NCBI GenBank assembly: GCA_035458965.1
Contig: DATHYU010000256.1
Coordinates: 1-27,011, forward strand
Length of the DNA stretch: 27,011 nucleotides
Source of the DNA: Acidimicrobiia bacterium
Lineage (GTDB): Bacteria > Actinomycetota > Acidimicrobiia > Spongiisociales > UBA11373
Direction of reading: 5' to 3'
The notes under the pieces are model-generated. The model was not told the DNA's origin, did not search any database, and saw only the letters and a list, made by a program, of their open reading frames with translations. This document shows positions 1,627 through 22,910 of this stretch, piece by piece. Every line of letters starts with the position of its first letter. Position 1 is the first letter of the stretch. The position numbers were made by a program, and so were the translations under genes.

Positions 1627-1653
1627 TCGACCCGACCCACCGGAGGCAGGACC

Positions 1654-2580: not shown

Positions 2581-3963
2581 TCAGCCCTTGCCGCGCAGCC
2601 AGTTCCCGATCCGCGCCAGCCGGGACGGCGCCTGACGGCGCTCCTCGGACCGGTCGGCCCGCTTGGCGAGCTGCAGCCCGGCGTTGATCCCGACCCACCG
2701 CAGGGGCTCGATCTCCCATCGGCGCGAGGTGTGGCCGACCCACGGCAGCGAGGTCCGCTCGGTCTCCTCCCCTGCGATGAGCTCCGCGAGTGTCCTGCCG
2801 GCGAGCTGGGCGGTGGCGACGCCGTCGCCGACGTAGCCGCCCGCCCACGCGAACCCGGCATCGTGGTCGCAGACCACCGACGGGCGCCAGTCCCGCGAGA
2901 CGCCGAGCGGCCCGCCCCACCGGTGCGTGATCTTCGTGCCCTCGAGGACCGGGAACATCTCGAGGAGGACCCGGACGAGCTCACGGTGCACGCCGTCATG
3001 GATGTCGAACGACGGCTTGACGGTCGAGCCGAAGTGATACGGCGCGCCCCGGCCACCGAAGGCGAGCCGATCGTCCGCGGTGCGCTGGCCGTAGATGAGC
3101 AGGTTCCGGAAGTCGCAGAACACCGGGCGGTCGGCCAGCCCGATGACATCCCAGACCTCGGGCGGCAGCGGCTCCGTGGCGACCATCAGCGAGTACAGCG
3201 GGACGATCTCGCGCCGCCGGCCCGCGAACCCGGCCGTGTAGCCCTCGGTGGCCCGTACGACCATCCCGGCCGACACTCGGCCTGCGTCGGTCTCGACCAC
3301 GCGATCGCCGATGGAACGGACCGGCGAGGCCTCGAAGATGGTGACGCCGCGGCGCTCGGCGGCGGCGGCGAGGCCGTGGACGAGCTTGGCGGGCTGGACG
3401 GCGGCGCCGTGGGCGTGCCACACGCCGCCAACCACGGAGGTGGCACCGAGCATGGCCCGCGCCTCGTCGGCGTCGAGATGGCGGATCTCGGCAGGGTCGT
3501 CGCCGAACTCGACCGCGGAGGCGACCTCCTCCCGGGCGACCCCGTCCTGGAACCCGAGGCGGGCGACCGCCAGCACCCCGCCGAGGTGGTAGTCGCACTC
3601 GATGCCCTCGGCGGCCGCGAGGGACCCGACGTCGCGGACGCTCTGGCGGAGGGCGTCGATGTGGGCCCGTGCGGCGTCGCGGCCGTGATCGGCTTCGAGC
3701 ACCTCGCGCCCGAGCGGGTACTCGGCGTGACACCAGCCGCCGTTGCGCCCCGACGCCCCGAAGCCGACGTGGGTCGCCTCCACGACGGTGATGGCGAGGC
3801 CGGGGCGCAATCTCGCGAGGTGATAGGCGCACCACAGGCCGGTGAACCCGGCGCCGACGATGACCACGTCGGCCTCATGGGCCCCTTCCAGACGCGGCCG
3901 GGTCGGCTCGGTCGGGACCGCGTCCCACCACAGCGGCCGGGTGACGGCGCCGTCGAGCTTCAC
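2581..3963 (-). CDS. FAD-dependent amine oxidoreductase, PuuB (gamma-glutamylputrescine oxidase)-like, DAO family
   Basis: VIVGAGFTGLW FAD motif, GASGRNGG, QPAKLVHGLA, RATEGY, WGGPLG, GGYVGDGV. GTGA start/stop overlap with the upstream ureohydrolase; polyamine cluster context. Confidence 0.85.
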   Translation of the reverse strand: MKLDGAVTRPLWWDAVPTEPTRPRLEGAHEADVVIVGAGFTGLWCAYHLARLRPGLAITVVEATHVGFGASGRNGGWCHAEYPLGREVLEADHGRDAARAHIDALRQSVRDVGSLAAAEGIECDYHLGGVLAVARLGFQDGVAREEVASAVEFGDDPAEIRHLDADEARAMLGATSVVGGVWHAHGAAVQPAKLVHGLAAAAERRGVTIFEASPVRSIGDRVVETDAGRVSAGMVVRATEGYTAGFAGRRREIVPLYSLMVATEPLPPEVWDVIGLADRPVFCDFRNLLIYGQRTADDRLAFGGRGAPYHFGSTVKPSFDIHDGVHRELVRVLLEMFPVLEGTKITHRWGGPLGVSRDWRPSVVCDHDAGFAWAGGYVGDGVATAQLAGRTLAELIAGEETERTSLPWVGHTSRRWEIEPLRWVGINAGLQLAKRADRSEERRQAPSRLARIGNWLRGKG

Positions 3964-4919
3964 GCTCCCACCTTTCGTTCCGCCATGCCGTTGAGGATCT
4001 CGAGCACGACCCGGTTCGCCAGGAAGGCGGTGACCTGGCCCGGGCCGTCGTAGGGCGGGGACACCTCGACGATGTCGGCCCCGACGATCGGGAGCTGGCG
4101 GGCGAGACGCCGGACCGTGTCGAGCAACTCGCGCGACATGAGGCCTCCGGGCTCGGGCGTCCCGGTGCCGGGCGCCATGCCGGGGTCGACGACGTCGACG
4201 TCGATCGACAGGAACACGCCGATCGCGTCGGGATCGGTGGCCGCCGTCACGGCGTCATCGACGACCGGGCGAAGCCCTCGCTCCACGATCTCCGACATGA
4301 GGAAGGTCCGCATCTGCTGATCGGCCATCCAGGTGACGACATTCGGCGGCGGCCAGTACCCGCGCAGGCCGATCTGCACGAAACGGTGACCGGGCACGGC
4401 CCCGGACTCGATGAGGCGGCGCATCGGCGTGCCGTGACCGTGGAGCGCCCCCATGCTCGTCTCGCCCGTGTCCGCATGGGCGTCGAAGTGGACGATCCCG
4501 AACGACCCGTCCCCGTGCACCCGTGCGAGACCGGTCCCGTTGCCGTACGTGATCGAGTGATCACCGCCGAGCACGATCGGCACCGCGCCCGCCGCCGCGA
4601 TCGCGGCGACCGTCTCGGCGAGCGTGGCGAGCCCCGCCTCGAGGTACCCCGGGGCCACCGCGATGTCGCCTGCGTCGACGACCGACAGCACGGAGAGCGG
4701 GTCGATGCCGGTCGACAGGTGCGGACGCACCCCGTCGGCGCCGAGGTAGTCCGCCTCGCGGATGGCCTTCGGCCCGAATCGGGCCCCGGACCGGTAGGTG
4801 GCACCCCAGTCGATCGGAGCGCCGAGCACGACCACGTCGGGAGCCTGCTCGGCCAGGGAGTCGATGCTCGCCTCGGGCACCCCTGCGAACGTGGGGAAGG
4901 TTGCGAAACGGCGCGTCAT
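3960..4919 (-). CDS. speB: Agmatinase / ureohydrolase (arginase family), exact guanidino substrate uncertain
   Basis: GARFGP, GGDHSIT, DAHAD, HGTPM, SIDVDVVDPGMAPGTGTPEPGG Mn-binding motifs. Start re-assigned to ATG 4919, which overlaps the GNAT stop (ATGA). Confidence 0.85.
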   Translation of the reverse strand: MTRRFATFPTFAGVPEASIDSLAEQAPDVVVLGAPIDWGATYRSGARFGPKAIREADYLGADGVRPHLSTGIDPLSVLSVVDAGDIAVAPGYLEAGLATLAETVAAIAAAGAVPIVLGGDHSITYGNGTGLARVHGDGSFGIVHFDAHADTGETSMGALHGHGTPMRRLIESGAVPGHRFVQIGLRGYWPPPNVVTWMADQQMRTFLMSEIVERGLRPVVDDAVTAATDPDAIGVFLSIDVDVVDPGMAPGTGTPEPGGLMSRELLDTVRRLARQLPIVGADIVEVSPPYDGPGQVTAFLANRVVLEILNGMAERKVGA

Positions 4920-5563
4920 CCGCGTCCTCGGGCGGCGTTGTCCGGATGATGCGGGTTGAGCCACACGATGAAGGAAGCGTAATTGTCGGTGGTGGGGTCG
5001 AGGACGTAGTCGGCGATCACGCCGTGGACCTCGAACCCGTTGGCGAGCTGCGCCGTGAGCGTCGGGTCGGTGAGCCGCCCATCGGCGACGGCGTCGACGT
5101 ACTCGCGGGCCGTCATCTCGTCCTTGTGGTCCCGGTACCCGGGGATGACGCCGCCGGCGATGATGCCCCGCTTGCCGTGATCGATGACGAGCTGCTTGCG
5201 GAGGTCGTAGAGGCGCCGGGCGATCCCGCGCCGCCGGTACTCGGGGTCGACGGCGATGTCGATGCCGTAGTACCAGTCGCCGTCGGGATCGTGGTTGCCG
5301 ACGCCCTCGTCGCCGACCACCTCGTGGAGGTCGTGCTGGGGCTCGGAGATGTCGTAGTCCACGAAGACCCCCGACGCCATGCCGACGACGCGGTCGCCGT
5401 CGAGGACCATGAAGCCGCCGGCCGGGAACAGCTCCTCCTGGAGCCGGACCCCGGCGACGGTGATCAGGTCCGCCCGGTCGACCGTCGGGAAGCAGCGAAG
5501 CTCGAGGTCGACGAGCTCCTCGGCGAAGTCCGACGACGCGGTGCGGAACTCGAGCTCACCCAT
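4916..5563 (-). CDS. GNAT-family N-acyltransferase (paralogue 1)
   Basis: YGIDIAVDPEYRRRGIA acyl-CoA motif A, LYDLRKQLV, DPTLTAQLANGF; SD GGAGGG upstream. Confidence 0.85.
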   Translation of the reverse strand: MGELEFRTASSDFAEELVDLELRCFPTVDRADLITVAGVRLQEELFPAGGFMVLDGDRVVGMASGVFVDYDISEPQHDLHEVVGDEGVGNHDPDGDWYYGIDIAVDPEYRRRGIARRLYDLRKQLVIDHGKRGIIAGGVIPGYRDHKDEMTAREYVDAVADGRLTDPTLTAQLANGFEVHGVIADYVLDPTTDNYASFIVWLNPHHPDNAARGRG

Positions 5564-5806
5564 GACCGGCCCCCTCCGCGCTCTTCGATGCCCCCGGCCC
5601 CGCAGGGCCCGGACGCCCGGATCTGTCGCTCGGCATGGGAGCCCCCTCTCGGTCCTCCGTCGGACGGCTCGCCGCCAGTATCGTCGAAATAGGCCCCCCG
5701 CACAAGCGATGCGATGGTCGCAAGGGGTGAAGTAGGCGTTTTCGTGTGCGACCGACCGATCTGGCGTCTATATTGATCGTGCGCATTCACACCACGCGGA
5801 GGAAGC

Positions 5807-7120
5807 ATGAGCGACATCCGGAGCGCCGCCAGGGACCACCTCTGGCTCCACTTCGCCCACGTCCCCCAGGCCGGGCCCATCATCATCGAGCGAGGCGAGG
5901 GGTGCTACCTCTGGGACAGCGACGGCAACCGCTACCTCGATGCGCTGGCCGGGCTGTTCGTCACCGCCATCGGCCATGGCCGGTCGGATCTCGCGAACGC
6001 CGCGAGCAAGCAGGCAGAGACCATGGCGTACTTCCCGGTGTGGGGCATGGCCCACGCCCCTGCGGCGGAACTGGCGACGAAGCTCGCCCAGCTGGCCCCC
6101 GGGGACATGGACCGCGTCTTCTTCGTCTCCGGCGGCTCCGAGGCGGTCGAGTCGGCGTGGAAGCTCGCACGGCAGTACTACCTGGCCAAGGGCGAGCCCC
6201 AGCGCATGCGCGTCATCGGACGCAAGACCGCCTACCACGGGACGACGCTCGGGGCGCTCTCGATCACGTCGATCCCTCCCATCCGCGAACCGTTCGAGCC
6301 CATGCTCAACCAGCTGACGACCCACGTCTCCACGACGGACAACCCCCGCGCCGCCGAGGAGATCGAGGAGGCGATCCTGGCCGTCGGGCCCGAGACCGTC
6401 GCCGCCGTCTTCCTCGAGCCGGTGCAGAACTCGGGCGGCTGCTTCACCCCCTACGAGGGCTACTGGCAGCAGGTCCGCGAGATCTGCGACCGCTACGGGA
6501 TCCTGCTCGTCAGCGACGAGGTGATCTGCGCCTTCGGCCGGCTCGGGACGTGGTTCGGCGGACAGAAGTTCGACTACGTGCCCGACATGATCACGTTCGC
6601 CAAGGGGGCGACCTCGGGGTACGCGCCGCTCGGCGGCGTCATCACCCGGCCCCACATCGCCGAGACCATTCGCGACGCCGGTGAGCTCGTCTGGCACGGG
6701 ATCACCTTCGGCGGGCATCCGGTGTCGTGCGCCGTCGCCCTCGCCAACATCGAGGCCATGGAGAGCGAGCGCATCGTCGAGCACGCGGCCGCGAACGAGC
6801 ACCGCTTCCGCGCCGCGCTCGAGGGCCTGCTCGACCATCCGATCGCCGCCGAGGTGCGCGGCACCGGCTACTTCTACGCGGTCGAGCTGCAGAAGGATCC
6901 CGAGCGGGGCATCCACTTCACCCGCGAGGAGGCGACCGAGCTGGTGGCCCGCCTCAAGCCGCTCCTCGTGGAGCTCGGCATGATCGCCAGGGCCGACGGC
7001 CGCGGCGCCCCGATCCTCCAGTACTCGCCGCCGCTCATCGCGGGCCCGGAGGAGTTCGACGAGATCGCGCGGATCTCGCGCGAGGCACTCGACCGGGTCT
7101 GGAAGGAGTGGACGGCATGA
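5807..7120 (+). CDS. Class-III PLP aminotransferase (omega-amine:pyruvate type, SpuC/PatA-like)
   Basis: SGGSEAVE, AYHG, EPVQ, SDEVICAFGRLG and TFAKG (PLP lysine); SD GGAGGAAG; coupled to ald. Confidence 0.9.
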   Translation: MSDIRSAARDHLWLHFAHVPQAGPIIIERGEGCYLWDSDGNRYLDALAGLFVTAIGHGRSDLANAASKQAETMAYFPVWGMAHAPAAELATKLAQLAPGDMDRVFFVSGGSEAVESAWKLARQYYLAKGEPQRMRVIGRKTAYHGTTLGALSITSIPPIREPFEPMLNQLTTHVSTTDNPRAAEEIEEAILAVGPETVAAVFLEPVQNSGGCFTPYEGYWQQVREICDRYGILLVSDEVICAFGRLGTWFGGQKFDYVPDMITFAKGATSGYAPLGGVITRPHIAETIRDAGELVWHGITFGGHPVSCAVALANIEAMESERIVEHAAANEHRFRAALEGLLDHPIAAEVRGTGYFYAVELQKDPERGIHFTREEATELVARLKPLLVELGMIARADGRGAPILQYSPPLIAGPEEFDEIARISREALDRVWKEWTA

Positions 7121-8205
7121 CGACGGTCGGCATCCCCACGGAGACCAAGCAGGACGAGCGACGCGTCGCGCTCACCCCGGGCGGCGCCGCCGAGCTGACG
7201 GCACGAGGCATCGACGTCGTCGTCCAGTCGGGCGCAGGGCTCGGATCGGCCATCGCCGACGAGGAGTACGCCGTCGTCGGCGCCCGCATCGTCGAGCACG
7301 CCGAGCAGGCCTGGGCATGCGACATCGTGTGCAAGGTCAAGGAGCCGCAGTCCGGCGAGTTCGGGTACCTGCGCGACGACCTCACGCTGTTCACCTTCCT
7401 GCACCTCGCCGCCTACCCGGGCGTGGCCCGGGCGCTGCTCGACGCCGGCACCACCGCCATCGCGTACGAGACGGTGGAGGTGGACGGCACGCTCCCGCTG
7501 CTCGCGCCCATGAGCGAGATCGCCGGCCGGCTGTCGATCCAGGCCGGGGCCTCCCACCTCGAGGCGCCCCACGGCGGACGCGGGGTGATGCTCGGCGGCG
7601 TGCCCGGTGTCGCGCCCGCGAACGTCGCCGTGATCGGGGGCGGGCACGTCGGATGGAACGCCGCGCGAATCGCGGCCGGCATGGGGGCCACCGTGACGAT
7701 CCTCGACATCAACGTCGCCCGGCTCCGCACCCTCGACGACCTCCTGTTCGGCCGAATGACGACGCGTGCCAGCAACCGCGCCGACGTCGAGGAGGCCATC
7801 GCGACCGCCGACCTCGTGATCGGTGCGGTCCTCGTCCCCGGCGCCAAGGCCCCCCACGTGGTGACCGAGGACCACATCCGCACGATGCGCCCGGGTTCCG
7901 TGGTCGTCGACGTGGCCATCGACCAGGGCGGCTGCGTCGCGACCAGCCGGGAGACGTCGCACCGCGAGCCCACGTACGTCGTCCACGACGTCGTGCACTA
8001 CGCCGTCGGGAACATGCCCGGGGCCGTCCCCCGCACCTCCACCTTCGCACTGACGAACGTGACGCTCCCCTACCTCGTCGCCCTCGCCGCCCACGGGGTC
8101 GACGGGGCGATCGATGTCCGTCCCGAGCTCGCCGGCGGACTCAACACCCGCGCAGGGGCGATCACCCACCCGGCCGTCGAGGTCGCGCTGCACGCGGTGG
8201 CGTGA
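7117..8205 (+). CDS. ald: Alanine dehydrogenase
   Basis: VGIPTETKQDERRVALTP, KVKEP, FTFLHLAA, AYETV, PMSEIAGRL, GAVLVPGAKAP, DVAIDQGGC, HYAVGNMPGAVPRTST. ATG 7117 overlaps the aminotransferase stop (ATGA). Confidence 0.95.
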   Translation: MTTVGIPTETKQDERRVALTPGGAAELTARGIDVVVQSGAGLGSAIADEEYAVVGARIVEHAEQAWACDIVCKVKEPQSGEFGYLRDDLTLFTFLHLAAYPGVARALLDAGTTAIAYETVEVDGTLPLLAPMSEIAGRLSIQAGASHLEAPHGGRGVMLGGVPGVAPANVAVIGGGHVGWNAARIAAGMGATVTILDINVARLRTLDDLLFGRMTTRASNRADVEEAIATADLVIGAVLVPGAKAPHVVTEDHIRTMRPGSVVVDVAIDQGGCVATSRETSHREPTYVVHDVVHYAVGNMPGAVPRTSTFALTNVTLPYLVALAAHGVDGAIDVRPELAGGLNTRAGAITHPAVEVALHAVA

Positions 8206-8648
8206 TGAAGATCGACACCACCGACAAGCAGATCATCGCCCTGCTCCAGGACGACGGCCGGATGCCGTTCTCGGCGCTCGGGCCGAAGGTCGGGCTGTCG
8301 CCGGCGGCGGCGCGCCAGCGCGTGCTCCAGCTCATCGACCAGGGCGTGATGCAGATCGTCGCCGTCACCGACCCGACGACCCTCGGGTTCCACGTGCAGG
8401 CGATGGTCGGCATCACCGTCGACGGCAGCGTCGAGGCCGTCACCGCCGAGATCACCGGCATGCCCGAGGTCGACTACACCGTGATCGTCGCCGGGCGCTT
8501 CGACATGCTCGTCGAGGTCGTCGCCGAGAACGCCGAGCACCTGATCTCGATCATGGAGCGCATCAGGGCGATCCCCGGCGTGGACGGAGCGGAGATCTTC
8601 ACCTACCTCCGGCTCGCCAAGCAGACCTACGACTGGGGAACCCGCTAG
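8205..8648 (+). CDS. Lrp/AsnC family transcriptional regulator
   Basis: MKIDTTDKQIIALLQDDGRMPFSALGPKVGLSPAAARQRV HTH, plus C-terminal RAM domain (VAGRFDMLVEV). TGATG overlap with ald. Confidence 0.92.
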   Translation: MKIDTTDKQIIALLQDDGRMPFSALGPKVGLSPAAARQRVLQLIDQGVMQIVAVTDPTTLGFHVQAMVGITVDGSVEAVTAEITGMPEVDYTVIVAGRFDMLVEVVAENAEHLISIMERIRAIPGVDGAEIFTYLRLAKQTYDWGTR

Positions 8649-8691
8649 GTCACCATCGATCCGGGCAGTCCCGCCCGGGTCACCACGCGAA

Positions 8692-8723
8692 CGGGCCGGG
8701 CGGCCCCTCGACCGCCCGGCCCG
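8692..8723. terminator. GC-rich hairpin between convergent genes, likely bidirectional terminator
   Basis: Perfect 12-bp inverted repeat CGGGCCGGGCGG (8692-8703) / CCGCCCGGCCCG (8712-8723) with an 8-nt loop; no U-tract, as is common in actinobacteria. Confidence 0.7.
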
Positions 8724-8741
8724 CTCTCGCGTCTCGCTCCG

Positions 8742-9821
8742 TCAGCTCTTCGCCTGGGCGAGCGCGTCCGTGTAGTTGATCTCGTAGTCGCCCTGGTCCT
8801 GGATCACCTCGGTGTTCGCCGAGCCGGTCGCCTCGTAGAAGTCCACGACCTCCTGCTCGAGGAACGGGACCGACGCAGCGTTCGGGCTGCCGTAGTAGTT
8901 CCAGTTCGTGAGCGCCGCGCCGTTCTCGGCATCCAGGAGGAAGTCGATGAACGTGTGCGCGGTGCACACCGACTTCGCGTTCGTCGGGATCGCCATGTTG
9001 TCGATCCACAGCGTCGCGCCCTCCTCCGGGAGGACGTACACGAAGTCGTCGGGGTTCTCGGCCTCGCCCATCGCCACGATCATGTTGCCCGAGTACCCAT
9101 GGGCCACGGCGACGTCGCCGGCGGCGAGGGACTCGTCGTACTGGTCCGAGTCGAAGGTCGCGATGTTGGCCTTGGCCTTCTGGATCACCTCGACGGCGGC
9201 CGCGAGATGGTCCGCGTTCGTGTCGTTCAGCGAGTAGCCGAGGTACATGAGCGCCGCGCCCATCGTCTCGCGCGGGTCGTTGAGCACCGACACGCCGCCC
9301 GCGAAGTTCGCCGTGAGAGCCGGATCGAACAGCAGGGCCCACGAGACCGGGAAGTCCGCGCCGACCAGCGCCGTGTTCACGCCGAGCCCGGTCGTGCCGT
9401 ACTGGTAGGCGATCGAGTAGTTCGCCCCGTCGTCGTAGGGCTGTGACGTGAACGCCGGGTCCAGGTTGCCGTAGTTCGTGAGCGCGCTCTTGTTGAGCTC
9501 CACGAGCAGGTCCTCGGACTTCATGACCGAGACCATGTAGTCGGACGGCACGATCAGGTCATAGGACACACCGCCCTGGATCTGCGCGAGCATCGCTTCG
9601 TTCGACTCGTAGAACGACTCGACCACGTCGACGCCGTACTGGCCCTCGAACGCCTCGATCAGATCTGGGTCCATGTACTCGGACCAGTTGTAGAAGTTCA
9701 GGTCGCCGTCGACCTGGCCAGGTGCACAGTCGGCAGCCGACACGGCGTCGGCGTCATCGCCTCCGCACGCCGCCGCAACCAGGGCGAGCGCGGCAACCAC
9801 CACGAGGATCTTCCTCATCAT
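8742..9821 (-). CDS. potD: Polyamine ABC transporter substrate-binding lipoprotein (PotD/PotF-like)
   Basis: Signal peptide with lipobox (LVAAAC), LNFYNWSEYMDP, YESNE, YDLIVPSDY, YQYGTTG, LNDPRE, HGYSG, EGATLWIDN. Start re-assigned to ATG 9821/9818 behind an AG-rich SD. Confidence 0.88.
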   Translation of the reverse strand: MMRKILVVVAALALVAAACGGDDADAVSAADCAPGQVDGDLNFYNWSEYMDPDLIEAFEGQYGVDVVESFYESNEAMLAQIQGGVSYDLIVPSDYMVSVMKSEDLLVELNKSALTNYGNLDPAFTSQPYDDGANYSIAYQYGTTGLGVNTALVGADFPVSWALLFDPALTANFAGGVSVLNDPRETMGAALMYLGYSLNDTNADHLAAAVEVIQKAKANIATFDSDQYDESLAAGDVAVAHGYSGNMIVAMGEAENPDDFVYVLPEEGATLWIDNMAIPTNAKSVCTAHTFIDFLLDAENGAALTNWNYYGSPNAASVPFLEQEVVDFYEATGSANTEVIQDQGDYEINYTDALAQAKS

Positions 9822-9853
9822 TCTCTTCCTTTCCTCCCTTTCAGTGGTCCCGG

Positions 9854-10699
9854 TCAAGACGTCTCGACCGCGGACCCTCCGGTGCGGTCCCGCTGAAAGA
9901 TCAGCGAGAACGCGACCAGCAGCATCGATGCGCTGAGCATCACCACCGAGACCGCATTGATCAGTGGGGTGACGCCACGGCGCACCAATCCAAACACATA
10001 GACGGGCAATGTGGTCGAACCGGGCCCGGCGACGAAGCTCGTGACCACCACGTCGTCGAGCGACAGGGTCAGCGCGAGCAGCGCCCCGCCGGCGACTGCC
10101 GGGGCGATGAGCGGCAGGGTCACCCGGCGGAACGCGGCCCAGCGGCTCGCATACAGGTCGGCGGCCGCCTCCTCGAGCGACGGGTCGAGCTGGGTGAGGC
10201 GGGCCCGCACCACGATGGCCACGAACGAGATGTTGAAGGCGATGTGGCTCAGCGAGATGGTCAGGAGACCGAACGAGATGTCGAGGCCGAGGCTGCCGAT
10301 GATCCCGAAGGCCTGACTGAAGAAGAGCAGCATCATCACGGCCATCGTGACGTCGGGAATGATCACCGGGAGGTACACGAGCCCGTCGAACGTGCGCTGG
10401 CCCCGGAAGCGGTACCGCTCGAGCGCGACCGCCGTCGCCGTGCCGAGCACCGTCGACACCGTCGTCGAGATGAACGCGACCACGAGCGAGTTCCGTAGCG
10501 CGTTCATCACGGCGTCGTTACGGAACATCTCGCCGTACCACTTGAACGAGAACTCCGTCCAGATGCCCACGTTGTCGTTCCCGTTGAACGAGAAGACCGT
10601 CAGCACGAGGATCGGGGCGTACAGGAACGCGAAGACCAACCACGTGTGGCCGGCGAGCCATCGATCGACCCCGCTCTTCGGACGCACGCCGACGCTCAC
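9854..10699 (-). CDS. potC: Polyamine ABC transporter permease (PotC-like)
   Basis: FLYAPILVLTVFSFN, SLSHIAF, EAA motif LEEAAADLYA, FTLSLDD-like LTLSLDD. GTG 10699 overlaps the potB stop; the ORF-track 5' extension to 11389 is spurious. Confidence 0.88.
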   Translation of the reverse strand: MSVGVRPKSGVDRWLAGHTWLVFAFLYAPILVLTVFSFNGNDNVGIWTEFSFKWYGEMFRNDAVMNALRNSLVVAFISTTVSTVLGTATAVALERYRFRGQRTFDGLVYLPVIIPDVTMAVMMLLFFSQAFGIIGSLGLDISFGLLTISLSHIAFNISFVAIVVRARLTQLDPSLEEAAADLYASRWAAFRRVTLPLIAPAVAGGALLALTLSLDDVVVTSFVAGPGSTTLPVYVFGLVRRGVTPLINAVSVVMLSASMLLVAFSLIFQRDRTGGSAVETS

Positions 10700-11592
10700 A
10701 GCGATCGCGCTCCGCGCCGGAAGTACACGATGGTGGCGACGAGCATGACCACCATCACGGCGACGGACAGCGCCGAGCCGAACGGCTGGTTCCTCGCGGC
10801 GAGGAACTGACTGACGATGTAGTCGCCGAGCAGCGTCGTGCGCGCCCCGCCGAGCAGCGCCGGGGTCACGTAGGCGCCGAGCGCCGGGATGAAGACCAGG
10901 ATCGAGCCCGCGATCACGCCCGGCATCGAGAGCGGGAGCGTGACCCTGCGGAAGGCCTGCCAGCCCGACGCGTACAGGTCGCGCGCTCCCTCGACGAGCG
11001 TCCAGTCCATCCGCTCCAGTGCGGCGTAGATGGGCAGCACCATGAAGGGGAGGAACCCGTACACGAGGCCGATGAGCACGGCGGGGTTCGTGAACAGGAT
11101 GCGGATCGGCTCGCCCCCGAACGCCTGGGAGAGCTGCGACAGCGGCCCGTCGTTGCCGAGCAGGACCCGCCACGCGTAGGTCCGCACGAGGAAGTTGGAC
11201 CAGAACGGGATCATGACGAGCACGAGCAGCATGCCCCGCCACTTGGCCGACCGCGTCGCCATGAAATACGCGAGCGGGTACGAGGCCGCCAGGGCGATCA
11301 CGGTCGTGAGGACCGCCATCGTGAGCGAGCGGAGGGCGATCTGGCCGACGAGCGGGTCGAACAGCCGCCGATAGGACTCGAGGTTCCACGACTCGAGCAC
11401 GGTCCTGCCGGTGCTCGACCGGGTGGCGAACGAGTAGACGACGACGATCACGAGCGGGATCGCAAAGAAGAGCACGAGGTAGAACGCCGACGGCGCGGCG
11501 ATCAACATTCCCCGCCGCGCCTCGGCCCGGATCGCGGCCTGCTCGAGCTCCGGAGTGACCGGAGCCTCACCCGTCTCGACGGGCACGGTCAT
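10696..11592 (-). CDS. potB: Polyamine ABC transporter permease (PotB-like)
   Basis: LVMIPFWSNFLVRTYAW, YGFLPFMVLPIY, LVEGARDLYA, VTLPLSMPG. ATG 11592 overlaps the potA stop. Confidence 0.88.
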   Translation of the reverse strand: MTVPVETGEAPVTPELEQAAIRAEARRGMLIAAPSAFYLVLFFAIPLVIVVVYSFATRSSTGRTVLESWNLESYRRLFDPLVGQIALRSLTMAVLTTVIALAASYPLAYFMATRSAKWRGMLLVLVMIPFWSNFLVRTYAWRVLLGNDGPLSQLSQAFGGEPIRILFTNPAVLIGLVYGFLPFMVLPIYAALERMDWTLVEGARDLYASGWQAFRRVTLPLSMPGVIAGSILVFIPALGAYVTPALLGGARTTLLGDYIVSQFLAARNQPFGSALSVAVMVVMLVATIVYFRRGARSL

Positions 11593-12698
11593 TCGTCGAC
11601 CACCGTCGTGGCGTCCGGGCTCCAATGGACGACGACCCGGTCCCCTTCGTTCCACTTGGCAACGGTCGGGCGGTTCTCCTCCTTGACCTCGAGGGTCCCG
11701 ACGGGCGAGTCCACGTCGTAGAAGAAGAAGTCGCCGTGGTACACCCTCCGGACGACGGTGCCGGGGAGCGAGTTGCGGCCCTCGCCCGCGTCGTCGGGCG
11801 CCGCGAGCGAGAACCGCTCGGGGCGGACCCCGACGGTGATCGCCGCGCCCTGCTCCCGGCCCGAGACCTTGCGCGCGCGGTACCCGTCGGCGAACTCGAT
11901 CGTCTCGGCGTCCACCACGGTGGCGGGGACCAGGTTGATCTCGCCGATGAAGTCCGCCACGAAGCGAGTCCGGGGGTGCTCGTAGAGCCCCTCGGGCGTG
12001 TCGAGCTGCAGCAGCTTCCCGTCGCTCATCACGCCGATGCGATCGCTCATGGTGAGCGCCTCCTGCTGGTCGTGCGTGACGTACACGAAGGTCACCCCGA
12101 CCCGGTGCTGGAGCTCCTTGAGCTCGATCTGCATCGACTGGCGCAGCTTGAGGTCGAGGGCGCCGAGCGGCTCATCGAGGAGCAGGACCGCCGGCTCGTT
12201 CACCAGGGCCCGGGCGAGCGCGACGCGCTGGCGCTGCCCACCCGAGAGCTGTGCGGGCTTCGCATCGGCGCGGGCGGACAGCCGGACCATGTCGAGGGCC
12301 CGCATGGCGCGCTCGCGGATACCGAGACGATCCGCTGACGACACCCGTCGAGCGAGGGGGTTGAGACCCGACGACTCGGCCCGCTTCGCCATCTCGAGCC
12401 CGAACACGACGTTGTCGAGGATCGTCATGTGGGGGAACAGCGCGTAGGACTGGAACACGGTGTTCACCGGCCGCTTGTTGGCCGGCAGCAGCCCCATCTC
12501 GGAGCCGTTGATCGCGATGGAGCCCGTCGTCGGGAACTCGAATCCGGCGATCATCCGCAGCGTGGTCGTCTTGCCGCAGCCGGATGGACCGAGGAGCGAG
12601 AAGAACTCGCCGTCGCGGATCTCGAGGGTCAGGTCGTCGACGGCCACGATGTCGTCGAAGCGCTTCGTGACGTTGCTGAGATGGACCGCGGCCTTCAC
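11589..12698 (-). CDS. potA: Polyamine ABC transporter ATP-binding protein (PotA-like)
   Basis: Walker A GPSGCGKTT, VFQSYALFPH, signature LSGGQRQ, Walker B LLLDEP, VTHDQQEA, C-terminal TOBE-like region. Start assigned to GTG 12698 behind GGAGG. Confidence 0.9.
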   Translation of the reverse strand: MKAAVHLSNVTKRFDDIVAVDDLTLEIRDGEFFSLLGPSGCGKTTTLRMIAGFEFPTTGSIAINGSEMGLLPANKRPVNTVFQSYALFPHMTILDNVVFGLEMAKRAESSGLNPLARRVSSADRLGIRERAMRALDMVRLSARADAKPAQLSGGQRQRVALARALVNEPAVLLLDEPLGALDLKLRQSMQIELKELQHRVGVTFVYVTHDQQEALTMSDRIGVMSDGKLLQLDTPEGLYEHPRTRFVADFIGEINLVPATVVDAETIEFADGYRARKVSGREQGAAITVGVRPERFSLAAPDDAGEGRNSLPGTVVRRVYHGDFFFYDVDSPVGTLEVKEENRPTVAKWNEGDRVVVHWSPDATTVVDE

Positions 12699-12829
12699 GA
12701 GCCTCCCGTCTCCCTCCGGCGTCGTGCGAGCATAGAGGCCGCCGACCGGTTCGTCCTGCCGAGCGGCGACAGTCGCCTGCATACAAACGATTCCATCGGA
12801 TATGTGAAGGAACACGGCAGTATGACAGT

Positions 12830-12858
12830 GTGACAGGTGTGCCTGCAACTGATACGAT
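12830..12858 (+). promoter_or_regulatory. Sigma70-type promoter for the ALDH-C45-GNAT-ALDH operon
   Basis: GTGACA (12830-12835), 17-nt spacer, TACGAT (12853-12858). Confidence 0.6.
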
Positions 12859-12886
12859 CCCAAACAGGCCGATCTGCGAGCGACTA

Positions 12887-14332
12887 GTGGGCACGACGGA
12901 GCTGAACCGCCAATTCATCGGGGGCGCGTGGGCCGACGCGGCGACCGGGGCGACCCGGGATCTCGTGAACCCGGCGACCGAGGACGCGATCGGCGCCATC
13001 GCCCACGGCGGCGCCGCCGACGCCGCCGCCGCGATCGAAGCGGCACACGATGCCTTCGAGGCCTGGGCCGCACGAGGACCATGGGCTCGCGCCGAGATCC
13101 TGCTGCGGGCGGCGGACCTCATGGCCGAGCGGGCCCCGCTGCTCGGGACGATCACGTCCGAGGAGTCCGGCAAGCCGATCCGGGAGGCCGTCGCCGAGTG
13201 GGCGTCGGCGCCCAACTACCTCCGATTCGCAGCCGAGGAGGCCAAGCGGATCGGCGGGAGGATCATTCCCAGCCGGGTGCCGGGCCGCCGCATCGAGGTG
13301 ACCTACGCCCCGATCGGGGTCGTCGGGGTCATCGCCGCATGGAACTTCCCGGTCTACAACGTGAACCGGGCGGCGTCCTCGGCCCTCGCGGCGGGGTGCA
13401 CGGTGGTCGTCCGGCCGAGTGAGCACACGCCGCGTTCCGCGCTCGCGTACGCCTCGATCCTCGCCGAGGCCGGCGCACCCGCCGGCGTGGTCAACGTGGT
13501 CCTCGGCGATGCCGCCGCCATGGCCGCGACGATGCTCGACGACCCGCGATTGAGAAAGCTCCAGTTCACGGGCTCCTCCGGCGTCGGCAAGCGACTGATG
13601 GAGGGTGCCGCCCGCACCGTCACGCGCCTCTCTCTCGAGCTCGGGGGCAACGCCCCCGTCATCGCCATGCCCGACGTCGCCGACGTCGCCGCGGTCGCCG
13701 CCGGGGCCGTCGGCGCGAAGTACCGCAACGCGGGCCAGGTCTGCATCGCCCCGCAGCGATTCCTCGTGCACGAGTCGATCGCCGGGGAGTTCGAGGCCGC
13801 CGTCGCCGACCGCACCGCGGCCCTCGCCGTCGGGGACCCGTCCCTCGAGACCACCGACATCGGCCCGATCATCAGCAGCCGCCAGCGCGACGCCGTCGAG
13901 CGGATCGTCGACGAGTCGGTCGGGCTCGGCGCGGCCGTGCGAGCGGGCGGGCGGCGCATCGACGGGAAGGGATTCTTCTTCGAGCCCACCGTGCTCTCCT
14001 CGACGCCGCCCGACGCTCCCGCCATGACGGAGGAGATCTTCGGGCCGGTGCTGCCGGTGACGACGTTCACCGACGTCGCCGACGCGATCGCGGTGGCGAA
14101 CTCGGTGGAGCTGGGGCTCACCGCCTTCGTCTGGACGACCGACCTCCGAACGGCCTTCTCGGTGTCCGACGCGCTCGAGTACGGCATGGTCGGGATCAAC
14201 GACTGGTACCCCGTGACGGCCGAGGCGCCCTTCGGCGGCGTCAAGGCGTCGGGGCTCGGGCGGGAGTCGGGATCCGAGGGCGTGCTCGAGTACCTCGAGT
14301 CCAAGACCCGGTACTTCGGCGGCGTGACGTGA
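12887..14332 (+). CDS. NAD(P)-dependent aldehyde dehydrogenase, succinate-semialdehyde dehydrogenase (GabD)-like
   Basis: AWNFP, FTGSSGVG, LELGGNAP (catalytic Glu), RNAGQVCI (catalytic Cys), EEIFGPV, APFGGVKASGLGRE. Start moved to GTG 12887 because the promoter overlaps the ORF-track start. Confidence 0.88.
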   Translation: MGTTELNRQFIGGAWADAATGATRDLVNPATEDAIGAIAHGGAADAAAAIEAAHDAFEAWAARGPWARAEILLRAADLMAERAPLLGTITSEESGKPIREAVAEWASAPNYLRFAAEEAKRIGGRIIPSRVPGRRIEVTYAPIGVVGVIAAWNFPVYNVNRAASSALAAGCTVVVRPSEHTPRSALAYASILAEAGAPAGVVNVVLGDAAAMAATMLDDPRLRKLQFTGSSGVGKRLMEGAARTVTRLSLELGGNAPVIAMPDVADVAAVAAGAVGAKYRNAGQVCIAPQRFLVHESIAGEFEAAVADRTAALAVGDPSLETTDIGPIISSRQRDAVERIVDESVGLGAAVRAGGRRIDGKGFFFEPTVLSSTPPDAPAMTEEIFGPVLPVTTFTDVADAIAVANSVELGLTAFVWTTDLRTAFSVSDALEYGMVGINDWYPVTAEAPFGGVKASGLGRESGSEGVLEYLESKTRYFGGVT

Positions 14333-15396
14333 CGAGCCCCATCGTCCTCGTCGCGGCCGGGGACCCGCGATCCATGGGGACCGCCCACGGGCTGGCGTTC
14401 GCCGACGAGATCCGCGCCTACACCGACAAGCGGGTCCGGCTGTCCCTGGAAGGGACCGGCATGTCACCGGCAGAGGCGCTGGCGGTCGCCGAGCTGATGC
14501 TCGACGCCCACCGCGACTACGACGCCGACCTCTTCACCGAGATGCTGGCCATGGCCGCCGCCGCCGGGATCAGCCCTGCCGAGGCGGTGATCGTGGGCGG
14601 CTACACCGACTTCATCGACACCATGCGCCGCCGTGCCGGCGGATCGGCGTTCGAGGACACGTGCACGACGGTGATCACGCCGGACACCGACTCCGGGGGC
14701 GCGGGCTTCCTCGCCCAGACGTGGGACATGCACGCGTCGGCGACCCCGCACGTCTTCATGCTCGATGCCCGGCCCGGGGGCCGGCCCGGCAGCCTCATCT
14801 TCACGACCCACGGAACCCTCGGCCAGATCGGGATGAACGACGCCGGCATCGCCATCGGCATCAACAACCTCACGATGGACGACGGGGACATCGGCGTGAC
14901 GTGGCCCTTCGTGGTGCGCAAGGCGCTCGACCAGACCGACTTCGAAGCCGCACTCGAGGCGGTCGTCGACGCCGACCTCGCCGGAGGCCACAGCTTCCTC
15001 CTCTTCGACGCGCGCGGCAACGGCGCCGTCGTCGAGGCGACCACGACGACGACCTCCATCGAGCGCCTCGACGGCCGGCCGCTCGTCCACACCAACCACT
15101 GCCTCACCGAGGCGGCCGCCACCGTCGAGTCGGCGCGGCCCGACTACCTGGTCGAGTCGTCGGACCTCAGGCTGGAGCACGCCACCGCCTACCTCGCCGC
15201 CTCGCCGGCCCATACCCTCGAGAGCCTGACGGCGCTCCTGCGCGACGAGGCGTCGATCTGCCGCCGGTCCGCCTCCCTCGACGACTACGAGAGCTCCGGA
15301 GCCGTCATCATGCGGCCGCGTACCGGCGACATGTGGGCCTGCTGGGGCGTCCCCGCCGACAACGACTTCGAGCACTTCCGGATCCCGCGGGGATGA
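14329..15396 (+). CDS. Peptidase C45 family Ntn hydrolase (acyl-CoA:6-APA acyltransferase / Tan-like amidohydrolase)
   Basis: Internal D-T-C-T autocleavage-type Cys, LAQTWDM, GQIGMNDAGIAIGINNL, VHTNH. GTGA overlap with ALDH1 and ATGA overlap with GNAT2. Confidence 0.82.
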   Translation: MTSPIVLVAAGDPRSMGTAHGLAFADEIRAYTDKRVRLSLEGTGMSPAEALAVAELMLDAHRDYDADLFTEMLAMAAAAGISPAEAVIVGGYTDFIDTMRRRAGGSAFEDTCTTVITPDTDSGGAGFLAQTWDMHASATPHVFMLDARPGGRPGSLIFTTHGTLGQIGMNDAGIAIGINNLTMDDGDIGVTWPFVVRKALDQTDFEAALEAVVDADLAGGHSFLLFDARGNGAVVEATTTTTSIERLDGRPLVHTNHCLTEAAATVESARPDYLVESSDLRLEHATAYLAASPAHTLESLTALLRDEASICRRSASLDDYESSGAVIMRPRTGDMWACWGVPADNDFEHFRIPRG

Positions 15397-16028
15397 CCGC
15401 GCTCCGCTACGTGCGCCTCACACCGGACCTCGTCGAGCAGTGCGCGGCGCTGGAGCTGCGGTCGTTCCCGACGGCCGACCCCGACGAGCTCCTGTCGGCG
15501 GACGACATCGCCGCGTACGCCGAGACGTTCCCGGAGGGGTTCTTCGTCTGCCTCGACGGGGACCGGGTCGTCGGCCAGGGAGCCGGCATCTTCCTCGACT
15601 TCGACTTCGACGACTACCAGCACTCCATCGTGGAGATCACCGGCGAGCACCAGTGCGGCAACCACGACCCCGACGCCGACTGGTACTACGGCACCGACAT
15701 CGTGGTGGATCCCGACTACCGGCGCCGGGGCATCGGCAGGACCCTCTACGACCTCCGCAAGCAGCTCGTGATGGACGGCGCCAAGCACGGGATCATCGCC
15801 GGCGGCCACATGCACGGGTTCGTCCATCACAAGCACGCCATGACGGCCGACGAGTACATCACCGAGGTCCGCGAGGGCCGCATCTACGACCCGACGCTCA
15901 CGTTCCAGATGAACCAGGGATTCGAGCTCGTCGGCGGGCTCGAGAACTACCTCGCCGACGAGGCGACGGACGGGTGGAGCGCCCTCATCGTGTGGCGCAA
16001 TCCCCGGCTCGCGACACGGACCGACTGA
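15393..16028 (+). CDS. GNAT-family N-acyltransferase (paralogue 2)
   Basis: ATG 15393 overlaps the C45 stop. YGTDIVVDPDYRRRGIG motif A; gapless alignment to 4916-5563. Confidence 0.85.
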   Translation: MTALRYVRLTPDLVEQCAALELRSFPTADPDELLSADDIAAYAETFPEGFFVCLDGDRVVGQGAGIFLDFDFDDYQHSIVEITGEHQCGNHDPDADWYYGTDIVVDPDYRRRGIGRTLYDLRKQLVMDGAKHGIIAGGHMHGFVHHKHAMTADEYITEVREGRIYDPTLTFQMNQGFELVGGLENYLADEATDGWSALIVWRNPRLATRTD

Positions 16029-16043
16029 ACAAGGGGGAAGGCC

Positions 16044-17480
16044 ATGGTCGACACCGTCGGGCTCTACATCGCCGGAGAGTGGACCGAAGGCACCGGCGAG
16101 GACGTCCACCACCTCCGCTCTCCTGCCACGGGCGAGCACATCGCCGACATCCCCGTGGCGTCGGCGGCGGACATCGATCGCGCCGTCGCCGCCGCCCGGG
16201 CCGCCCAGGACGAGTTCCGGCACTGGTCGGCCATCGAGCGGGCGGGCCTCAACCACCGCATCGCCGCCGAGATCGAGCCACTCATCCACGAGATCGCCCG
16301 TATCCAGACCCTCGAGCAGGGCAAGCCGTTCCACGCCGAATCGCTCGAGGACGTCGCGGAGGCCAACACCTACTTCACCGAGGCGGCGGAGGACGTGAAG
16401 CGCCTCGAAGGGGCGGTGATCCCCGCGAGCGACCGCAGCGTCCGCATGTTCACCTTCCACCGGCCGGTGGGCGTCTGGGCGGCCATCACCCCCTGGAACT
16501 TCCCCGTGACGATCCCCCTCGAGTACATCGGTCCCGGCCTCGCGACCGGAAACGCGGTGATCGCGAAGCCGCCCTTGCACACGTCGTGGGCGCTCCTGAA
16601 GCTCGCCGAGGCGTTCGACGCCGCCGGTGTGCCGAAGGGGCTCGTGTCGATCATCCCCGGCGGGGCCGCGATCGGTGAACGCCTCGTCACCCACTCCGGC
16701 ATCGACGCGATCGGGTTCACGGGCTCGTCGGAGACGGGCAGGCGGATCATCTCGATGATGGGGATCAAGCGGTCGATCATGGAGATGTCCGGCAACGGGC
16801 CGACGATCGTCACCGCGGACGGCAACGTGGCGGCCGCCGCCGAGGCCGCGGTGTACGGCACCTACTACAACGCCGGGCAGGTGTGCTGCGCCACCGAGCG
16901 CGTCATCGTGCACCGGGAGGTCCACGACGAGTTCGTCGAACGGTCCCTCGAGGCCGCGCAGGTCGTCCGCCTCGGCGATCCCTTCGACCCCGAGACCACG
17001 ATGGGCCCGCTGAACAACGAGGAGACGGCGGCCAAGATGGACCGCCACCTCGCCGACGCGCGCGACCGCGGCGTCGACGTCCTGGTCGGCGGCGGGCGGG
17101 CGCCCGGGTACCCCACCGACCTCTACTACGACTTCACGATCCTCGACGGCGTCCCCGAGGACTCGGCCGTGGCCAAGGAGGAGTCCTTCGGGCCGGTCAT
17201 GCCGATCCTCACGGTGGCAGGGGACGAGGAGGCCGTCGCGGTCGCGAACCGAAGCAACCTGGGCCTCCAGGCCGCCGTCTTCACCCGAAGCCTCGACACC
17301 GCGTTCTGGTACACCGACCGGCTGCGCACCGGCTCGGTGATCGTCAACGACTCGACCGACTTCTGGGAGACCTTCCAGCCCTTCGGAGGGGCGTCGGGGA
17401 CCGACACCGGATGGGGCCGGGGCAAGGTCCCCGAGTTCACCGACATCCAGACGATGGTCGTGAACCTCGAGAACACGTAG
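16044..17480 (+). CDS. NAD(P)-dependent aldehyde dehydrogenase (second, divergent paralogue)
   Basis: TPWNFP, FTGSSETG, MEMSGNGP (Glu), YNAGQVCC (Cys), EESFGPV, QPFGG; SD-like AAGGGGGAAGG. Confidence 0.88.
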   Translation: MVDTVGLYIAGEWTEGTGEDVHHLRSPATGEHIADIPVASAADIDRAVAAARAAQDEFRHWSAIERAGLNHRIAAEIEPLIHEIARIQTLEQGKPFHAESLEDVAEANTYFTEAAEDVKRLEGAVIPASDRSVRMFTFHRPVGVWAAITPWNFPVTIPLEYIGPGLATGNAVIAKPPLHTSWALLKLAEAFDAAGVPKGLVSIIPGGAAIGERLVTHSGIDAIGFTGSSETGRRIISMMGIKRSIMEMSGNGPTIVTADGNVAAAAEAAVYGTYYNAGQVCCATERVIVHREVHDEFVERSLEAAQVVRLGDPFDPETTMGPLNNEETAAKMDRHLADARDRGVDVLVGGGRAPGYPTDLYYDFTILDGVPEDSAVAKEESFGPVMPILTVAGDEEAVAVANRSNLGLQAAVFTRSLDTAFWYTDRLRTGSVIVNDSTDFWETFQPFGGASGTDTGWGRGKVPEFTDIQTMVVNLENT

Positions 17481-18446: not shown

Positions 18447-18462
18447 TAGTGTCCAATGCATG
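18447..18462 (+). promoter_or_regulatory. Putative leaderless promoter for the lipoprotein gene
   Basis: TAGTGT (18447-18452), 7 nt, ATG (18460); no SD. Confidence 0.55.
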
Positions 18463-20077: not shown

Positions 20078-20096
20078 TAGTTGCAGAATGCAACTA
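20078..20096. promoter_or_regulatory. Palindromic operator upstream of pirin
   Basis: Perfect 8-bp inverted repeat TAGTTGCA-gaa-TGCAACTA, AT-rich for this genome, overlapping a -10-like TACAGT (20095-20100), 33 nt before the pirin ATG. Confidence 0.7.
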
Positions 20097-20129
20097 CAGT
20101 CGGTACTGCCGAATCCAAGGAGCACCGCC

Positions 20130-21083: not shown

Positions 21084-21222
21084 CGGCGCCGGGCCATCCG
21101 CCGGCAGCGATCGACCGCGGCCCAGACGGCGAGCGAGGCGAGGGTGACGTCGACCCCGCAGTCCGGGCCCGACGACGCCTGCTCCGACAGCGGGGCATCA
21201 CAGCGAGGGCACGAACGCACGG

Positions 21223-21246
21223 TGCTGTCAGCGGTCTGCTGTCAGC
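21223..21246. repeat. Tandem 10-bp direct repeat TGCTGTCAGC x2
   Basis: Copies at 21223-21232 and 21237-21246. Confidence 0.6.
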
Positions 21247-21247
21247 C

Positions 21248-21267
21248 CACCGATCCACGGATCGGTG
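21248..21267 (-). terminator. Hairpin immediately after the stop of the 117-aa ORF
   Basis: CACCGATCC-ac-GGATCGGTG perfect 9-bp inverted repeat abutting the TGA at 21270-21268. Confidence 0.5.
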
Positions 21268-22887: not shown

Positions 22888-22910
22888 GAGTCTCCTCTGC
22901 CCCTACGGGG

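Follow-up and report, generated by a model that had tools for sequence, protein, structure and literature searches.

Acidimicrobiia abound in soils, sediments, and seawater, environments in which polyamines and agmatine are major sources of nitrogen and carbon. In the Puu pathway of Escherichia coli (PuuA–E) and the Pau pathway of Pseudomonas, one end of the amine is capped, the other end is oxidised, the resulting aldehyde is oxidised in turn, the cap is removed, and the γ-aminobutyrate (GABA) that is released is converted to succinate. The AST pathway (AstA–E) combines acyl-CoA-dependent N-acyl protection with a transaminase, an aldehyde dehydrogenase (ALDH), and a final deacylase, and an acetyl-putrescine route to GABA is known from older biochemistry in yeast. 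In mammalian astrocytes, putrescine is converted to N-acetylputrescine, N-acetyl-GABA, and then GABA by PAT/SAT1, MAO-B, ALDH1A1, and SIRT2 (PMC11734448). A bacterial catabolic version of this route was not found in the literature searched, and current reviews describe bacterial polyamine acetylation as dead-end detoxification (PMC8998196). Here, we analyse a gene cluster at positions 2581–17480 of a 27-kb contig (DATHYU010000256.1) from an Acidimicrobiia bacterium, in which two GNAT-family acyltransferases and a C45-family hydrolase lie among genes for a Pot-like importer, a PuuB-like oxidase, and other enzymes of amine catabolism. A sequence-only reading of this DNA had proposed that GNAT and C45 serve in place of PuuA and PuuD. 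We hold, with moderate confidence, that the cluster would encode an acyl-CoA-dependent protected catabolic route for agmatine- or putrescine-type amines.

Gene content and proposed route

The window is the entire 27-kb contig (C256), the longest of the 495 contigs of a metagenome-assembled genome (MAG), and its G + C content is 70%. The MAG comprises 2.46 Mb and is 69.7% complete, such that the absence of a gene from it is not proof, and because the window is the whole contig, the flanks beyond it are unreadable in this genome. Genes were assigned by Pfam and NCBIfam profile matches judged against curated cut-offs (Table 1). Positions 2581–17480 form four tightly coupled operons, in which neighbouring genes overlap by 1 or 4 nucleotides or are separated by gaps of about 15 nucleotides. 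Four-nucleotide overlaps flank the C45 gene, with GTGA at its junction with ALDH1 and ATGA at its junction with GNAT2. The letters are ATGA at the GNAT1/ureohydrolase junction, GTGA between the ureohydrolase and the DAO-family oxidase, ATGA between the aminotransferase and alanine dehydrogenase, and TGATG between alanine dehydrogenase and the AsnC-family regulator. All of the polyamine-cluster genes that the sequence-only reading had listed are found at the places it gave, and the junction letters bear out its description of the GNATs and C45 as embedded by stop/start overlaps; its gene positions held overall, apart from the starts of the ureohydrolase (4919, not 4964) and of the AsnC-family gene (8205).

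We infer the identity of every substrate and acyl donor in the route, as well as the order of its steps. A PotABCD-type importer would take up agmatine, putrescine, or similar amines, and the agmatinase-family ureohydrolase would strip off the guanidino group. A YkwB/YhcX-type GNAT would acylate one amino group from an acyl-CoA, with acetyl as the simplest guess, and the PuuB-like FAD oxidase or the class-III aminotransferase would turn the free amino end into an aldehyde, with alanine dehydrogenase regenerating pyruvate for a pyruvate-dependent transaminase. Because the other nitrogen would be capped, the aminoaldehyde could not cyclise. An ALDH would oxidise it to an N-acyl omega-amino acid, from which the C45 enzyme, a Cys-type N-terminal nucleophile (Ntn) hydrolase, would take off the acyl group; the freed GABA or beta-alanine would then be transaminated and converted by the second ALDH to an acid.

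Over 374 aa, the oxidase is 32% identical to PuuB of E. coli (E 2e-40); it is the sole PuuB match in the genome and by homology a PuuB-type FAD oxidase. According to its annotation, the substrate of E. coli PuuB is itself an N-acylated diamine, gamma-glutamylputrescine. The ureohydrolase narrowly passes the agmatinase equivalog TIGR01230 (175.9 bits, cut-off 174.3) and is under the cut-off of the PRK02190 subfamily (206 bits, cut-off 302); it may instead be a guanidino-acid hydrolase. ALDH1 resembles succinate-semialdehyde and aminobutyraldehyde dehydrogenases, and the boundary between the two permeases lies near 10696–10699.

The characterised C45 enzymes, isopenicillin-N acyltransferase and Drosophila Tan, cleave or exchange N-acyl groups on amines. 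The C45 protein in the window is over the NF040521 cut-off (188.6 bits, cut-off 85) and has WD and HTNHC motifs in common with the fungal isopenicillin-N acyltransferase. It keeps the predicted N-terminal nucleophile Cys of family C45, as Cys112 is invariant in 23 homologues and is aligned with Cys103 of the fungal enzyme. The two GNATs are paralogues that share 51% identity without gaps, and they belong to the YkwB/YhcX-type GNAT family: the nearest reviewed relatives of GNAT2 are YkwB (TM 0.92) and YhcX (TM 0.90) of Bacillus subtilis, at 29–31% identity. YhcX is a GNAT fused to a carbon-nitrogen hydrolase, and its tie to auxin production is genetic only. A search of PDB sequences with the GNAT gave nothing significant. 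The AlphaFold2 model of GNAT2 has a mean pLDDT of 96. Across the family, the CoA motif R110xxG113 is conserved (R110 in 89%, G113 in 94%), and Y155 is invariant and lies on helix 152–160 of the model, at what we take to be the usual position of the GNAT catalytic acid; H91 (98%), Y99, and D166 are also conserved, and T168 is found in 79%. From this motif and the model, GNAT2 is probably an active acyl-CoA enzyme, and as far as can be judged from sequence, the catalytic core is intact in both C45 and GNAT.

Table 1. Operons and genes of the window, with profile matches and remarks.
Feature	Position	Strand	Profile match or remark
Alpha/beta-hydrolase and polysaccharide deacetylase-family gene	841–2472	+	Adjoin the cluster, on the strand opposite to the oxidase
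Operon 1: GNAT1–ureohydrolase–PuuB-like oxidase	5563–2581	-	
DAO-family FAD oxidoreductase (PuuB homologue)	2581–3963	-	PF01266 195.7 bits; last gene of its operon
Agmatinase-family ureohydrolase	3960–4919	-	PF00491 276 bits
GNAT1, oxidase-linked paralogue	4916–5563	-	PF00583 40 bits (cut-off 20.7)
Operon 2: class-III aminotransferase–alanine dehydrogenase–AsnC	5807–8648	+	
Class-III (omega-type) aminotransferase	5807–7120	+	PF00202 306.7 bits; PRK06541 614 bits (cut-off 574)
Alanine dehydrogenase	7117–8205	+	Equivalog TIGR00518 501.7 bits (cut-off 391.85)
AsnC/Lrp-family regulator	8205–8648	+	PF13404 and PF01037
Operon 3: PotA/B/C/D-like importer	12650–8742	-	
PotD/PotF-like periplasmic binding protein	8742–9857	-	PF13416 113 bits
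PotC-like and PotB-like ABC permeases	9854–11655	-	PF00528 in both; starts approximate
PotA-like ABC ATPase	11589–12650	-	PF00005 and TOBE_2; start approximate, longest open reading frame reaches 12863
Operon 4: ALDH1–C45–GNAT2–ALDH2	12830–17480	+	
ALDH1	12830–14332	+	PF00171 508.7 bits; best NCBIfam model succinate-semialdehyde dehydrogenase (SSADH), 450 bits, under cut-off
C45-family Ntn (Cys) amidohydrolase/acyltransferase proenzyme	14329–15396	+	PF03417 79.2 bits (cut-off 23.2)
GNAT2, C45-linked acyl-CoA N-acyltransferase	15393–16028	+	PF00583 36 bits (cut-off 20.7)
ALDH2	16044–17480	+	PF00171 457.9 bits
Enoyl-CoA hydratase-family gene	17570–18328	+	PF00378 179.5 bits; downstream of ALDH2
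HpnE/CrtI-like flavin oxidoreductase, acyl-CoA dehydrogenase, small open reading frame	21268–24341	-	

Conservation and fusions of the C45–GNAT module

A scan of one genome per species identified 80 related loci, with C45 homologues that are 46–67% identical. They are found mostly in Acidimicrobiia MAGs, with a few in bins labelled Myxococcota, Dehalococcoidia, or Proteobacteria. Neighbouring genes were counted by tblastn of these loci with the proteins of the window; 75 loci have room for a downstream GNAT and 40 have at least 6 kb on both sides. In 66 of the 75, the gene that immediately follows C45 encodes a GNAT; the gene before C45 encodes an aminotransferase or an ALDH. The conserved link between GNAT, C45, and polyamine-type clusters on which the sequence-only reading depended is confirmed by this adjacency and by the transporter and catabolic partners that recur around it. 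Within the 40 longer loci, the partners are GNAT (37), ATPase (33), binding protein (31), aminotransferase (30), ALDH (26), DAO-family oxidase (22), ureohydrolase (18), AsnC (17), and Amidohydro_3 (15); a class-I amidotransferase of family C26 occurs in one and glutamine synthetase (GS) in none, and alanine dehydrogenase is a variable member (2/40). A recurrent layout consists of an aminotransferase–C45–GNAT–ureohydrolase–PotABCD operon with a divergent oxidase, and the ureohydrolase often comes immediately after the C45-linked GNAT. Two aminotransferases are present in 14 of the 40 loci and two ALDHs in nine, which matches a route that would need each activity on a capped and then on a free intermediate. 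In several loci, a GabT/PuuE-like aminotransferase and an SSADH-like ALDH are immediately upstream of C45, and this fits the release of GABA by C45. A second GNAT paralogue lies beside the oxidase in six other loci, and in a tree of the paralogues GNAT1 clusters with the oxidase-adjacent copy of one of them, L066, with support of 100/100.

Fusions connect the same activities. A C45–linker–GNAT protein encoded by a single open reading frame (P0395; L133:9392–11200, + strand) was verified by translation; its host (G071) is a closed, 4.8-Mb, 99%-complete genome from another family of the class, where an oxidase and an aminotransferase are divergent beside the fusion. A second candidate, in L050, was rejected because a stop codon separates two genes in the same frame. 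An index-free search of 1.84 billion representatives identified 966 relatives of GNAT2, several of them multidomain. In L097, a flavin amine oxidase–GNAT fusion adjoins a Pot-like transporter and an aminotransferase. A fusion of GNAT with a class-III aminotransferase was found as an identical 678-aa protein in three metagenome samples (L098:5013–7049, L099, and L100), flanked by an amino-acid permease and a quinohemoprotein amine dehydrogenase; in L098, a C45 gene is 4 kb away. L101 contains an Amidohydro_3–GNAT fusion along with C45, a Pot-like transporter, a second GNAT, and an amine oxidase. Many further relatives are fused to a carbon-nitrogen hydrolase, and one to C45. The GNAT family is thus fused or adjacent to three unrelated amidase folds (C45, CN_hydrolase, and Amidohydro_3), and its pairings with these folds, with amine oxidase, and with aminotransferase fit a logic of acylation, oxidation or transamination, and deacylation. 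Clustered at 90% identity, the fusion proteins are all singletons, so the amine oxidase–GNAT and Amidohydro_3–GNAT fusions may be read-through of overlapping genes, in which case the adjacency still holds.

In L101 (560–1648), a gene of the agmatine-deiminase family PAD_porph adjoins C45, where the ureohydrolase would otherwise be expected, and may provide an alternative entry step for agmatine. The occurrence of either a ureohydrolase or the non-homologous PAD_porph in alternative versions of the cluster points to agmatine and putrescine as substrates. Separately, members of the GNAT family are fused to phosphoenolpyruvate-carboxylase-like segments (P0318 and P0354; 570 and 996 aa) and, in P0290, to a HAD hydrolase; both types of fusion are unexplained by a reading based on amine catabolism.

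Gamma-glutamylation and rival readings

The E. coli puu locus served as the reference for comparison with the Puu pathway. The contig has no match to PF00120 (GS) or PF07722 (C26), and tblastn with E. coli PuuA and PuuD was also empty, in agreement with the earlier statement that the window has no GS-like or class-I amidotransferase gene. There is no GS match within 10 kb in any of the 80 related loci. Elsewhere in the genome, the sole PuuA match is a fragment of an ordinary GSI, and the GS genes consist of GSI fragments and GlnII. A short GS-like reading frame (C450:219–1253, L011) was rejected as a ligase, being an eukaryote-like GlnII (645 bits, cut-off 500). A similar short frame is divergent beside the GSI gene in G001 and G002. 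The sole PuuD match in the genome is a C26 gene beside an SDR gene on contig C334, which scores 109 bits with the PuuD model (cut-off 266). Five relatives with fuller genomes carry the cluster: four have a single GSI, accompanied in three of them by a short reading frame of the GlnII kind, and the fifth has four GS paralogues. Four of the five have a C26 gene. In G005, one GS is 4 kb from C26 and ALDH genes, far from the C45 locus; the C26 genes of G001, G002, and G004 have no amine-catabolic neighbours. There is no support for reading the C26 genes as markers of a hidden gamma-glutamyl route, since only G005 has such an ALDH–C26–GS cluster. In Microthrix-like and marine Acidimicrobiales MAGs (L080, L091, and L094), ALDH and C26 genes come after the Pot-like transporter of an aminotransferase–C45–GNAT–ureohydrolase operon.

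Copy numbers of GS were surveyed across the class in 201 genomes with a completeness of 85% or more. Of these, 35 have the C45 subfamily, which is concentrated in three families of one order. Carriers have a mean of 2.79 strong GS-family genes versus 2.30 in non-carriers of the same order (Mann–Whitney p 0.10, with the caveat that related genomes are not independent), and 22 of 33 carriers have at least three. The anti-correlation with puuA-type genes expected from the sequence-only reading therefore failed. Its central claim, that the module acts in place of PuuA and PuuD, stands in so far as GS is absent from all 80 loci and GSI and GlnII are the only GS genes of the closest relatives; it does not stand as regards anti-correlation, and a C26 gene exists elsewhere in the MAG. 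None of the loci examined links the module to a GS-type ligase, and some of the genomes that carry it have housekeeping GS only. It is independent of PuuA, though often found alongside GS paralogues.

Several observations weigh against the acyl-protected route. Fused or coupled enzymes usually catalyse consecutive steps; GNAT and C45 would catalyse the non-adjacent steps 1 and 4, and this keeps alive a role for the pair in acyl exchange or shuttling. The deacylase could be Amidohydro_3, found in 15 of the 40 loci, rather than C45. A known substrate was found for no YkwB/YhcX-type GNAT and for no bacterial C45. The best solved structures for GNAT2 are the decarboxylase-type domains of CurA, GphF, and SxtA (TM 0.79–0.84, 16–19% identity), and it fits amine acetyltransferases less well (AANAT TM 0.66, yeast Paa1 0.64, PaiA 0.50–0.55). 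The decarboxylase-type domains use a catalytic His/Thr pair, for which H91 and T168 would be the candidates in the GNAT family. It has no NCBIfam match that would place it with SpeG, PaiA, or SSAT, and PaiA and Paa1 are structurally distant. This distance lowers the likelihood that GNAT2 is an SSAT, not the likelihood that it acetylates polyamines. PotA, PotD, and PotF are the top-ranking importer models, yet all are under their cut-offs: the ATPase scores 353.6 bits with TIGR01187 potA (cut-off 355.6), and the binding protein scores 199 bits with PotD (cut-off 582) and 172 bits with PotF (cut-off 636). In 3 of the 80 loci (L080, L091, and L094), the cluster itself includes a C26 gene, and with the GS paralogues of the carriers this means that the module may coexist with gamma-glutamylation.

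The back-to-back arrangement could also mark an acyl-exchange or acyl-shuttle unit, an explanation that we judge unlikely. In an exchange, an imported N-acyl or aminoacyl conjugate would be split by C45 and its amine acylated anew by the GNAT; in a shuttle, the N-acyl amino-acid product would give up its acyl group to C45, which would hand it back to CoA or load it onto a new amine, with the cap being recycled. Fusion in a single frame and coupling by four nucleotides are seen more typically where two steps are consecutive or physically linked. The one C45 relative with a solved structure exchanges acyl groups on an amine as an acyl-CoA-dependent acyltransferase, and the CN_hydrolase–GNAT and Amidohydro_3–GNAT fusions repeat the pairing of an amidase with a GNAT. 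However, the context suggests no conjugate substrate, and the transfer from an amide to a thioester is energetically uphill. A particular form of this idea, to which we give little credence, is a catalytic protecting-group shuttle in which the GNAT would prime the cycle from acyl-CoA and the Cys thioester of C45 would pass the acyl group to CoA or to the next amine. If true, amines would be oxidised with a recycled cap at little or no net cost in ATP or acyl-CoA, which would be a new principle in amine catabolism and the first physiological role for a bacterial C45. Genes for a transaminase, an ALDH, and GabT-like and SSADH-like enzymes would suffice for a direct route (transaminase or oxidase, ALDH, GabT, and GabD), in which the GNAT is a SpeG-like safety valve and C45 is an amidase for side substrates or for the rescue of acetyl-amines, and the literature sees bacterial polyamine acetylation as detoxification (PMC8998196). 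We nevertheless consider this quite improbable, as it leaves unexplained the adjacency of C45 and GNAT in 66 of 75 loci, the fusions of GNAT to amine oxidase and aminotransferase, and the second GNAT coupled to the PuuB-like oxidase, the last two of which the acyl-protected route does explain.

The nature of the substrate is a further consideration. What is imported might be some other amino or guanidino compound (for example, guanidinobutyrate, guanidinopropionate, a diamino acid, an aminophosphonate, or an amine of the taurine type), with GNAT and C45 acting on it: the top curated model for the oxidase is a ‘putative aminophosphonate oxidoreductase’ (205 bits, far under its cut-off), PhnT-type models also match the ATPase, the binding protein is under the PotD and PotF cut-offs, and the ureohydrolase barely passes the agmatinase model. 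A non-polyamine substrate is very doubtful in our view, given that the top transporter models are PotA, PotD, and PotF, that the oxidase is the PuuB homologue of the genome, that the ureohydrolase and the PAD_porph that replaces it in L101 both point to agmatine, and that no phosphonate-specific genes were seen. It is more doubtful still that a gamma-glutamyl-type route operates with its ligase replaced, and with C45 as a gamma-glutamyl-type or aminoacyl transferase or hydrolase acting on amines. C26 genes do exist in carriers that have no PuuA-type paralogue, they follow the transporter and ALDH in three loci, and the amide that the fungal C45 enzyme recognises, an aminoadipyl one, closely resembles a gamma-glutamyl amide. 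Yet the C26 genes of the nearest relatives lack amine-catabolic neighbours, the C26 gene of this genome falls far short of the PuuD cut-off, and the GNAT would be left without a role.

Occurrence, neighbouring genes, and comparison with described systems

C45 is absent from all eight other genomes of the family to which the MAG belongs, and the closest C45 (67%) comes from another family of the same order. The holB gene of the contig is closest to the MAG's own family (64–70% identity), and mis-binning of the contig was rejected on this affinity; G210, a genome flagged as unpublished that also entered this comparison, underlies none of the conclusions. Synteny with a closed genome of the same family (G062) is restricted to the segment orf117–acyl-CoA dehydrogenase...holB (~21.3–26.8 kb) and ends left of ~21.2 kb, which marks the amine cluster as an accessory region; the acyl-CoA dehydrogenase has 73% identity to the G062 copy and is syntenic with holB. 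About a dozen studies of soil, sediment, and marine sediment have metagenomes with near-identical DNA, which also occurs in RNA libraries, and in runs X1–X20, 87–96% of the 31-mers sampled from 12830–17480 were matched. The population that carries the operon is widespread. Contigs from four RNA libraries (three studies) cover the locus with 0–2 differences and span the C45/GNAT2, GNAT2/ALDH2, and aminotransferase/alanine dehydrogenase junctions. Because the depth in these libraries is low and even and DNA carry-over is possible, the coverage is compatible with expression and only suggestive of it.

Several genes of the window lie beyond ALDH2. The enoyl-CoA hydratase-family gene is a doubtful member, as it is not conserved beside the module in relatives. 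A reading frame of 534 aa at 18460–20064 (+ strand) has a coding-like third-position G + C of 0.90 and no Pfam match, and two more frames without an assigned family lie at 20081–20683 and 20774–21424. The flavin amine oxidase (PF01593) at 22911–24341 was rejected as an SSAT/PAO-like partner, since it is HpnE/CrtI-like and its likeness to the GNAT-linked oxidases, to which it is not orthologous, is limited to the FAD motif.

Characterisation of a C45–GNAT pair, of a 4-acetamidobutanoate deacetylase, of GNAT/CN-hydrolase fusions, or of YhcX or YkwB was not found in the literature searched, and an apparent link between ‘C45’ and putrescine was rejected as a molecular formula. If the proposed route is true, it would add to the gamma-glutamylation, transaminase, direct-oxidation, and spermidine-dehydrogenase routes and would give first functions to bacterial C45 enzymes and YkwB/YhcX-type GNATs, both of which are widespread and uncharacterised. 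It would also provide gene candidates for N-acyl-GABA and N-acyl-beta-alanine deacylase activities, and would correct the genome-based prediction of polyamine consumers, which is now keyed on puuA/puuD, spuC, and spermidine dehydrogenase.

The proposed route has the same logic as the Puu/Pau pathways. The cluster has homologues of PuuB (32%), a PuuC-type ALDH (34%), and a class-III aminotransferase, and differs in having neither a GS-like ligase nor a C26 hydrolase: an acyl-CoA-dependent GNAT would take the place of the ATP-dependent ligase in capping, and a Cys-Ntn C45 enzyme that of the class-I amidotransferase-fold hydrolase in uncapping. The astrocyte route is alike in oxidising an acetyl-protected putrescine and deacetylating it last (PMC11734448). 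Its enzymes are unrelated (an SSAT-type rather than a YkwB-type GNAT, MAO rather than a DAO-family oxidase or transaminase, and a sirtuin rather than C45), and it yields a signalling molecule rather than serving as a growth pathway. The AST pathway uses other acyltransferase and desuccinylase families and acts on arginine.

Comparisons of the individual proteins extend this picture. The fungal isopenicillin-N acyltransferase (PDB 2x1c/2x1d/2x1e) shares the C45 family and the position of the nucleophile Cys (profile E 2.4e-22); the likeness is distant and confined to the C45 core, with an 82.7-bit profile match to residues 5–305. Unlike the fungal and Tan enzymes, the C45 protein described here comes from a bacterium, is encoded in a catabolic operon, and has a GNAT as its coupled or fused partner. 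YhcX of B. subtilis repeats this pairing of amidase and GNAT; YkwB and YhcX are themselves uncharacterised and, as far as is known, are in no polyamine cluster. GNAT2 is structurally far from PaiA, and the pairing of a GNAT with a flavin amine oxidase, as in the eukaryotic back-conversion of polyamines by SpeG/PaiA/SSAT-type enzymes and acetylpolyamine oxidase, is also found in L097 and L101.

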